A DNA stretch of 64,000 bases from Escherichia coli (GTDB lineage: Bacteria > Pseudomonadota > Gammaproteobacteria > Enterobacterales > Enterobacteriaceae). The position numbers were made by a program. Location: the NCBI RefSeq assembly GCF_030384885.1, contig NZ_CP128613.1, one strand, 5' to 3'. Shown one piece after another: positions 56,001 through 59,000 of the stretch (positions within the stretch are counted from its first letter, which is position 1; the number at the start of each line of letters is the position of its first letter).

Positions 56001-59000
56001 ATATGCTGTTGGAAAACGGCGGAAGTTTGCGGGTTGAAGAGAATGACTTCGCTTATAATACCACTGTGGATAGTGGTGGTTTACTGGAGGTTATGGATGG
56101 CGGGACTGCAACTGGCGTTGACAAAAAAGCAGGCGGAAAATTAATTGTTTCAACGAATGCGCTGGAAGTGAGTGGTACAAACAGTAAAGGCCAATTTAGC
56201 ATAAAAGATGGCGTGTCTAAAAATTATGAACTGGATGATGGTTCCGGGCTAATTGTTATGGAGGGCACTCAGGCAATTGACACTATCCTTGATGAGCATG
56301 CAACCATGCAATCGTTGGGAAGAGATACTGGTACGAGAGTGCAGGCACATGCAGTTTATGATCTTGGTCGGTCAGTGCAGAATGGAAGCATAAAATATTC
56401 CTCAAATGCCATATCTGAAAATATGGTTATCGATAATGGTCGCGCTAATGTCTGGACTGGCACAATGGTTAACGTAACAGTCAGAGGAAATGAGGGCATT
56501 ATTGATGCAATGGCGCTGGAATTAAATTTTTATACACCGGCTACATTTTTAGGTGACGTGGTGGTTTCTGATGGTGCATCTTTAAGAACGCATGGCGCAG
56601 TGGATACCAGTAAAGCAGATGTTTCTATCGAAGAGAGTTTTTGGGCTATTATTGCCGATATCAATAATATAAACCAAAACACCCATCTCAATTTAGCAAA
56701 CCTGGTGATGTCAGACGGAACTGTCGTTATGATGGCTGAGCCAGCAACTCGCTCAACCGTGACGGCAAGTGCGGAAAATTTCACTACGTTGACCACTAAT
56801 ACCCTATCGGGAAACGGCAATTTTTATATGCGTACCGATATGGCTAATCATCAGAGCGATCAGCTCAACGTGACCGGTCAGGCAACAGGTGATTTCAAAA
56901 TATTTGTGACGGACACGGGGGCCAGCCCGGCAGCAGGTGATAGCCTTACACTGGTAACAACGGGCGGCGGTGATGCTGCATTTACCTTGGGCAATGCCGG
57001 AGGCGTTGTTGATATCGGTACGTATGAATATACCTTGCTGGATAATGGCAACCATAGCTGGAGTCTGGCAGAGAATCGCACGCAAATAACTCCTTCAACC
57101 ACTGATGTGTTGAATATGGCGGCAGCACAACCGCTGGTATTTGATGCAGAACTGGATACCGTACGTGAGCGTCTTGGTAGCGTAAAAGGCGTTAATTACG
57201 ATACGGCGATGTGGAGTTCGGCAATTAACACCCGCAACAACGTAACCACTGATGCGGGAGCTGGCTTTGAGCAAACATTGACGGGGCTGACGCTCGGTAT
57301 CGATAGCCGTTTCTCCCGTGAAGAAAGCAGCACAATTCGTGGCTTATTCTTTGGTTACTCTCATTCTGATATTGGTTTTGATCGCGGCGGTAAAGGTAAT
57401 ATCGATAGCTATACTCTGGGTGCTTATGCCGGTTGGGAGCATCAAAACGGTACCTATGTTGACGGGGTGGTGAAAGTTGACCGTTTTGCCAACACCATCC
57501 ATGGCAAGATGAGTAATGGGGCAACAGCGTTTGGCGATTACAATAGTAACGGCGCGGGTGCTCATGTCGAGAGCGGGTTCCGTTGGGGGGAGGGGCTGTG
57601 GAATGTAAGGCCTTATCTGTCCTTTACCGGCTTTACCACTGATGGTCAGGACTATACGTTATCAAATGGTATGCGTGCGGATGTGGGAAATACCCGCATA
57701 TTACGCGCTGAAGCGGGAACGGCGGTAAGCTATCACATGGACCTGCAAAACGGTACTACGCTGGAACCCTGGCTGAAAGCCGCCGTGCGTCAGGAATACG
57801 CCGATTCTAACCAAGTGAAAGTTAATGACGACGGCAAATTTAATAATGACGTGGCTGGAACCCGTGGCGTTTATCAGGCTGGGATAAGGTCATCGTTTAC
57901 CCCGACGTTAAGCGGTCATTTGTCAGTCAGCTATGGCAATGGCGCGGGGGTAGAATCACCGTGGAATACCCAGGCGGGTGTGGTCTGGACGTTCTGATAA
58001 CAGAAAATAAACAGGTCGTAATGTGTCGCGGTCTGTTTATCAAATTAATCGCAGATATAAAAAAACCAACCGCAATAGGTTGGTTTTCTTGGGATTTTTG
58101 GTCGGCACGAGAGGATTTGAACCTCCGACCCCCGACACCCCATGACGGTGCGCTACCAGGCTGCGCTACGTGCCGACTCGTGGCTGCTAATACTACCGTT
58201 TTCCACAACGAATGCAAGTAAGATATTTCGCTAACTGATTTATAATTAATCAGTTAGCGATAAAACGCTTCTCGTCTGTCAGCACCTGCAATAACAAACT
58301 TAACTGTGGTTTTTCATCTTTCACTCTTTCACCACGTAAGTTGTAAGTACGGTATTTACCGTTATTGTTCAGCACCAGCGTCTTTTTCGGGGTGGTAATT
58401 GCCAGCGTATCGTTATCCGCAGCGGTAACCCAGTAATGACGGCGTTGAGGGTTGAACAAATCCTGACCTTGCGAATATTCGCTGGCAGGTGTGCTGACAT
58501 GTAGCAGGCGTTGCATCAGCGTCGTCATCAGATCGGTATGATCAGTCAGCGCATTAATACGCTGCGCCGGTGTGCCGGGCCAGTGAATCACTAATGGTAC
58601 CTGCAGATGACCGTGGGACCAGTCAAAGGTTTCTTCCTCTTCGCTCAGCGGAATACCCCGGCCGGCAGTGATAATCACCACCGTATTGTCCAGTTTGCCA
58701 GAATCACGCAGTGCATTGAGCACGCGGTTGATCTGGTCATCGACATTGCCTGCCGCCCGGCTATATTTCCGTGCAAATGCCTGCTGATTGCTGTCGTCAA
58801 TGTTAGTGCCATTGAAAGAGACCCACGAGAACCAGCGGTTATCTTCTTGTGCGTAGCGGCCCAGCCAGTTGATCCACTGCGTGGCGGTCTGCTCGTCGGA
58901 TTGGGTACGTACGCTCGGCATCGAGAAATCTGACAACAATGCCTGGCGATACAGCGGGCTGGTAAAGCCATCTGACGAGAATAACCCCAGCTGATAGCCT

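Follow-up and report, generated by a model that had tools for sequence, protein, structure and literature searches.

The question raised by the tRNA-Pro gene of this Escherichia coli sequence (64,000 nt of contig NZ_CP128613.1, hereafter the window) is whether a mobile element is integrated at its 3' end, and how far the DNA on either side of the gene can be regarded as core chromosome. The initial annotation had described the site as empty and the region as core. Both proposals were evaluated by comparison with complete E. coli genomes and with species-representative genomes of Enterobacterales, together with searches for attachment repeats and integrases.

The proL gene and its surroundings

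The only tRNA gene found in the window encodes a tRNA-Pro with anticodon GGG (ARAGORN), which is proL in the nomenclature of K-12. Its score against the Rfam tRNA model RF00005 was 54.9 bits (E 4.8e-10; gathering score 29), and its sequence was 100% identical to the tRNA-Pro that the K-12 derivative BW25113 carries between these two neighbours, yejO and yejM, as well as to the copy in UTI89. Its GGG tRNA fold, its position downstream of yejL-yejM and its identity with K-12 identify it as the proL of Enterobacterales. Gene order was taken from the RefSeq annotation of an identical record (NZ_CP027579.1, E. coli 2013C-4282, human stool, USA), to whose chromosome the 6.1-kb stretch around proL matched at 100%, and reads ccmF, dsbE, ccmH, narP, yejO, tRNA-Pro, yejM, yejL, yejK, rplY, radD. 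The placement of the tRNA within 58000-58250, flanked by yejO and yejM, as initially annotated, was therefore correct. The genes that matter for the site are the following:

58099-58175, minus strand: proL, tRNA-Pro(GGG), 77 nt (ARAGORN, Rfam, RefSeq)
58099-58101, minus strand: CCA encoded by proL
58250-60010, minus strand: yejM, upstream neighbour of proL (ORF list, RefSeq, Pfam DUF3413 and Sulfatase)
55403-57997, plus strand: yejO, intact gene for an 864-aa AIDA-type autotransporter, convergent with proL (ORF list, RefSeq, Pfam)
54437-55084, minus strand: narP, ancestral downstream neighbour of proL (RefSeq; Pfam Response_reg and GerE)

Since proL is encoded on the minus strand, its 3' end, which is the integration side, faces yejO, while its 5' side faces yejM. 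Only 101 nt separate the 3' end from the yejO stop codon, and 74 nt separate the 5' end from that of yejM. YejO was assigned to the AIDA-I-type autotransporters by its matches to the Pfam families AIDA (4.1e-51), Pertactin (5.6e-45) and Autotransporter (1.1e-44). On the opposite side, yejM was found immediately upstream of proL in 106 of the 120 loci recovered when species-representative genomes of Enterobacterales were scanned with the 3' half of the tRNA, with a spacing of 75-82 nt in the loci listed individually. Judged by this shared gene order, the yejL-yejM-proL side is deep core.

Three further features were recognized in the spacers bordering the tRNA:

58059-58090, both strands: bidirectional intrinsic terminator for proL (minus) and yejO (plus), stem CCAACC/GGTTGG with flanking A and T runs (inverted repeat I12)
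58190-58217, minus strand: predicted proL promoter, with -35 TTGCAT at 58212-58217, a 16-nt spacer and -10 TAGTAT at 58190-58195 (conserved columns)
58228-58260, minus strand: 13-bp hairpin enclosing the UGA stop codon of yejM (58250-58252), 10 nt upstream of the proL -35 hexamer (inverted repeat I1)

The first of these folds with -16.8 kcal/mol (z -3.66) and presents, on both strands, a G+C-containing hairpin followed by a U-run; by these features it could terminate transcription both of proL and of the convergent yejO. A simple consensus scan had returned neither a promoter nor a terminator for proL, and the terminator was established instead by folding and conservation. Both promoter hexamers scored below the threshold of that scan, and both fall in alignment columns conserved across Enterobacterales, from which we infer that proL has a conserved promoter of its own, lying in the 74 nt that separate it from yejM, with a predicted transcript start at about 58183. 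The short leader of such a tRNA transcript would be removed by RNase P. The hairpin at the end of yejM has a perfect 13-bp stem (-18.1 kcal/mol, z -5.7) and no U-run, and other genera keep a hairpin at the position of the yejM stop codon with different stem sequences. Its role may be to shield proL from transcription running on out of yejM, or else to stabilise the yejLM mRNA.

Some additional observations concern other parts of the window. The ccmH-narP spacer (54225-54436, 212 nt) gave sub-threshold Rfam matches to the ES036/CssrF and naRNA4 models at 54278-54360, a segment that we read as a REP-like sequence unrelated to proL; the same insert is found in K-12, and the spacer measures only about 35 nt in strains ZH48, CFSAN027346 and UTI89. 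The gene ccmA (47939-48561) is marked as frameshifted by RefSeq, which would affect cytochrome c maturation if the frameshift is real and not a sequencing error. Between nrdA and ubiG, RefSeq reports a truncated, frameshifted ORF (4648-5608), probably where K-12 has its yfaL autotransporter gene.

The attachment site in E. coli

In order to define the attachment site, a 231-bp query centred on the 3' end of the tRNA (57985-58215) was compared with 5425 complete E. coli genomes. The query was collinear in 4824 of them and interrupted in the remaining 601 (11.1%, an occupancy that is a count of interrupted sites, six of which were inspected). In all six inspected genomes an integrase-bearing element was located between proL and yejO, with 8.8-19 kb of inserted DNA, an integrase gene that adjoins the tRNA copy at one element end, and the core sequence duplicated. 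Four of them (ZH48, CFSAN027346, STEC2017-197 and SCU-171) carry phage satellites of about 9-11.5 kb each, with genes for an integrase, an HTH regulator, an Icd-like protein, a RepA-type helicase, a major capsid protein and a small terminase, a set that resembles capsid-forming PICIs, the likeness being one of gene content alone. MIN10 harbours a 19-kb mobilizable island that encodes an ABC-three-component system in addition to an integrase and a relaxase, and GZM7 a 16-kb degraded prophage accompanied by a second tRNA-Pro copy. The two integrases scanned against Pfam, those of ZH48 and MIN10, both contain Arm-DNA-bind_3, Phage_int_M and Phage_integrase domains.

The extent of the core was given by the MIN10 island, which is flanked by a perfect 21-bp direct repeat, TTTGGTCGGCACGAGAGGATT, identical to positions 58097-58117 of the window. 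The far-end copies of the satellites are shorter and imperfect: only TGGTCCACGAGAG or TGGCACGAGAG is retained in ZH48 and CFSAN027346, that is, 13 nt and 11 nt, respectively, with an internal deletion of 2-4 nt with respect to the 3' end of the tRNA. The corresponding features are:

58097-58117 of the window: unoccupied attB core, single copy, made up of the 19 nt that end the tRNA, its CCA among them, and the 2 nt that follow; plus-strand sequence TTTGGTCGGCACGAGAGGATT
23690-23705 of locus L002 and about 11225-11240 of locus L003: far-end att copies of the satellites

A related sequence was also detected outside the chromosome. Plasmid pZ1323HEC0010-3 (NZ_CP148393.1, 44.6 kb) bears, at positions 3001-3092 of locus L131, an 84%-identical copy of window positions 58057-58150, comprising the terminator and the 3' half of the tRNA and adjoining DinI-like and tail-fibre genes. 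We regard this copy as the probable attP of a phage-plasmid with a relationship to the degraded GZM7 prophage.

The occupied genomes and the window have the same chromosomal flanks, the same tRNA and the same att core sequence, and differ in that the window has neither an integrase nor a duplicated core. These comparisons show that the attB core, as defined by the occupied genomes, consists of the last ~19 nt of the tRNA and 2 nt downstream, and is used in other strains by the tyrosine integrases of satellites, of a mobilizable island and of a prophage, each element lying between proL and yejO. Integration leaves a copy of the core at the far end of the element, and the incoming DNA presumably supplies a replacement 3' end that keeps the tRNA intact. 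In the window, a single-gene tRNA-Pro(GGG) unit between yejM and yejO is followed directly by the terminator that it shares with the convergent yejO. The core occurs once and is contiguous with this native terminator; no element is present, and the site is presumably still available for integration.

Direct searches agreed with the absence of an element. The 3'-terminal 20-mer of the tRNA had no second copy in the 64 kb at up to 3 mismatches (one occurrence, against 0.01 expected by chance), and gapped searches with the last 12-30 nt of the tRNA over the whole window yielded matches at the level of chance, none of them intergenic on the tRNA strand. Fuzzy matches to the tRNA 3' end, for example at 56329-56339 (minus strand, within the yejO reading frame) and at 54973-54984 (wrong strand, within narP), were rejected as chance, because an element so bounded would cut intact conserved genes and because 10-12 such matches occur per window at that stringency. 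A repeat scan of 54900-58300 found no repeat involving the tRNA, only repeats internal to the passenger region of yejO and two local hairpins. Six integrases from occupied proL sites gave no tblastn match in 54-61 kb, and the best match in the whole window (E = 0.037) was spurious. Stop-to-stop fragments of the narP-yejO and yejO-proL spacers had no integrase-like Pfam match, the sole match at E <= 1 being a sub-threshold Scorpion_toxin, and the ORFs around proL are all accounted for by yejO, yejM and narP. The first 50 kb of the window (inaA to ccmD, K-12-type housekeeping genes) contain no annotated integrase, transposase or phage gene, and housekeeping genes like those of K-12, with no mobile-element gene annotated, likewise make up the remainder outside the proL locus. 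At proL itself, the marks of an occupied att site, namely a recombinase gene, a distal repeat of the tRNA and extra DNA at the tRNA 3' end, were all absent.

The repeat search alone has little power against satellites, whose distal att copies of 11-13 nt are near the level of chance; what supports the verdict is collinearity, together with spacers too short to hold an element (101 nt and 74 nt). A search for a 15-20 nt duplicate, as initially suggested, would likewise miss the commonest occupants of proL in E. coli, since their distal copy is that short and carries an internal deletion. This is almost certainly an ordinary E. coli chromosomal proL locus with an unoccupied site, and the yejO cassette an older, non-mobile segment rather than a tRNA-targeted island. 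The initial statements that proL carries no integrated element, that no integrase lies nearby and that the tRNA 3' end is not duplicated were all borne out by these results, and the ancestral terminator retained directly after the tRNA is the strongest evidence for the first of them.

An element could also be present in the strain and missing from the sequence, through assembly collapse or in a mixed population with excision. Satellites of the kind found at proL do excise, which makes mixed populations conceivable, and this was the only support found. A finished circular chromosome is matched by the window at 100%, and the proL junction has the structure of the majority of E. coli, which makes a missing element extremely improbable. 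An element that integrated in the past and then excised precisely would restore the sequence of an empty site, and such an event could have taken place at this locus.

proL across Enterobacterales

An alignment of 19 of the 120 loci showed an orthologous terminator after proL in Citrobacter, Enterobacter, Klebsiella indica, Pluralibacter, Cedecea, Erwinia, Hafnia and Budvicia, with compensatory changes in the stem (CCAACC/GGTTGG, CCAGCC/GGCTGG and GCAGCC/GGCTGC). A perfect hairpin followed by a T-run was present right after the tRNA in 76 of the 118 loci with enough sequence. In E. albertii, S. arizonae, Raoultella, Pectobacterium, Dickeya and Phytobacter, the sequence diverges directly after the CCA; an integrase comes next in E. 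albertii and Pectobacterium, and none was detected in the other four. Restricting the set to loci that have yejM upstream and 600 nt or more of sequence downstream leaves 96, of which 16 have an integrase starting within 400 nt of proL. The arrangement in the window is thus the ancestral one, with the site unoccupied, and proL is nevertheless a real integration hotspot across Enterobacterales.

The sister genus provides a known case, as SPI-12 of Salmonella adjoins proL (PMC7143636), so that the same tRNA gene is an island site there. Salmonella carries a 6-15 kb island at proL. No island occurs in the window, where the native terminator is retained; in S. enterica subsp. arizonae, by contrast, the sequence diverges right after the tRNA. 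A review of E. coli genomic islands (PMC7545054) does not mention proL, and a literature search found no paper naming both proL and yejO. The empty proL site of the window is in itself a correct but ordinary observation, already known and with nothing new to it.

A further sequence, ACCCCnnAAGAACCCGCATTCTCnCTGAGTTTGCGGG, is conserved within the first 70 nt after proL in many Enterobacterales (L012, L017, L028, L041, L057, L069 and others), its carriers including Pectobacterium, Dickeya, Brenneria, Raoultella, Phytobacter and S. enterica subsp. arizonae. An integrase often follows, at +178 to +218, and at several loci none was detected with the queries used. ACCCCnnAAGAACCCGCATTCTCnCTGAGTTTGCGGG resembles the terminus of an element family with a wide distribution.

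Origin of the yejO cassette

The DNA beyond the terminator, unlike the yejM side, is not deep core. The segment concerned is:

55195-58045, no strand assigned: yejO cassette, extending from the terminator of proL to the promoter region of narP, with no att repeats at its bounds (borders approximate, about 5 nt)

In six other species narP directly adjoins proL, and the cassette is absent with clean junctions from two divergent Escherichia lineages (L032 and L080) and from four Citrobacter species. The start of narP lies 184 nt after proL in both Escherichia lineages and 198-209 nt after it in Citrobacter, compared with about 3.0 kb in the window, a difference due to the cassette. The yejO-less junctions share with the window the tRNA, the terminator and the promoter-proximal 110 nt of narP. 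L032, whose flanking genes are 90.6-94.3% identical to those of the window, and L080 both keep the terminator together with the final 110 nt before narP, and only about 25 nt stand in place of about 2.85 kb. No YejO ortholog was found downstream of proL in the 120 loci from other species.

Base composition and variability also set the segment apart. The GC content of the cassette is 0.458, and the GC3 of yejO is 0.428, against 0.54-0.62 for narP, yejM and ccmH; the atypical composition begins beyond the terminator and without att sites. With respect to K-12, identity is 87-95% in yejO, 98-100% in narP, yejM and yejL, and about 97% in yejK and ccmH. Over the 6.1-kb region, an identity of at least 99% is reached by only 2 of 5461 records. 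The proL locus of K-12 (yejL-yejM-proL-yejO-narP) has the same order, orientation and terminator as the window, and its site is likewise empty; its yejO, in contrast to the intact 864-aa gene of the window, is a pseudogene split by an IS5 near the 5' end. Deletion remnants of 798 bp and 768 bp are left in UTI89 and SCU-171, respectively, and yejO is interrupted by internal stops in ZH48, CFSAN027346, MIN10 and STEC2017-197.

The initial reading of the region as core chromosome therefore holds for the yejM side and the backbone, and needs qualifying on the yejO side, which is a lineage-specific and decaying segment; proL sits at the border of this segment with the deep core. The statement that no foreign cargo is present was too strong, given that a cassette of atypical composition is missing from two divergent Escherichia lineages and four Citrobacter species. 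The cassette would represent an older, non-mobile, lineage-specific insertion beyond the terminator.

The absence from Citrobacter and from divergent Escherichia could alternatively reflect independent losses of a yejO that was ancestral to both genera, in which case nothing in the interval would be foreign. The UTI89 and SCU-171 remnants, which suggest deletion in progress, and the many strains with internal stops are consistent with such losses. Against them, the six yejO-less genomes, from two genera, converge on a similar spacer length (184-209 nt), the segment that the cassette replaced is recognisably similar between cryptic Escherichia and Citrobacter, and both the lack of orthologs in other species and the low GC3 of yejO argue for a gain; ancestry with repeated loss is accordingly rather unlikely, if still a reading to be weighed.

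Gain could in turn have occurred at the tRNA itself, the cassette being the eroded remnant of an island once integrated at the proL 3' end that has since lost its integrase and att repeat. The cassette lies exactly on the side to which the tRNA 3' end points, the one entered by all present-day elements, and yejO is missing from sister lineages and Citrobacter, low in GC and GC3 and, within E. coli, divergent, hit by an IS and partly deleted, all of which an eroded island would share. The position of the border speaks otherwise: it lies about 50 nt past the tRNA, on the far side of a native terminator orthologous to that of the yejO-less genomes, whereas insertion by an integrase would break the sequence inside the tRNA 3' end. 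Moreover, no tRNA fragment, border repeat or trace of an integrase accompanies the cassette, and present-day elements enter between proL and yejO, with yejO as their flank. An origin as a tRNA-integrated island was thus given low weight, for the cassette border lies beyond the retained native terminator, and it appears very improbable.

The most economical reading is that yejO was gained in the E. coli lineage and then decayed. Since its border lies beyond the retained terminator and neither att nor border repeats were found (the repeat scan of 54900-58300 included the cassette borders), this gain was not a tRNA-integrase event. On balance, we consider it somewhat more probable than not that the cassette was acquired horizontally by the stem lineage of E. 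coli, entering the spacer immediately downstream of proL, where variable DNA has a hotspot throughout Enterobacterales, and is decaying in many of its lineages, with proL as a long-lived boundary between core and accessory DNA.

In annotating the window, the surroundings of proL may be taken as chromosome backbone. At tRNA sites in general, collinearity with empty-site genomes together with retention of the native terminator is more reliable than a search for a 15-20 nt duplicate, and the exact attB core, with an occupancy of roughly 11% among complete E. coli genomes, serves as a reference for the empty state against which satellites and islands inserted at proL can be recognized. If the proposed history of the cassette is true, proL marks a core/accessory boundary even when its att site is empty.
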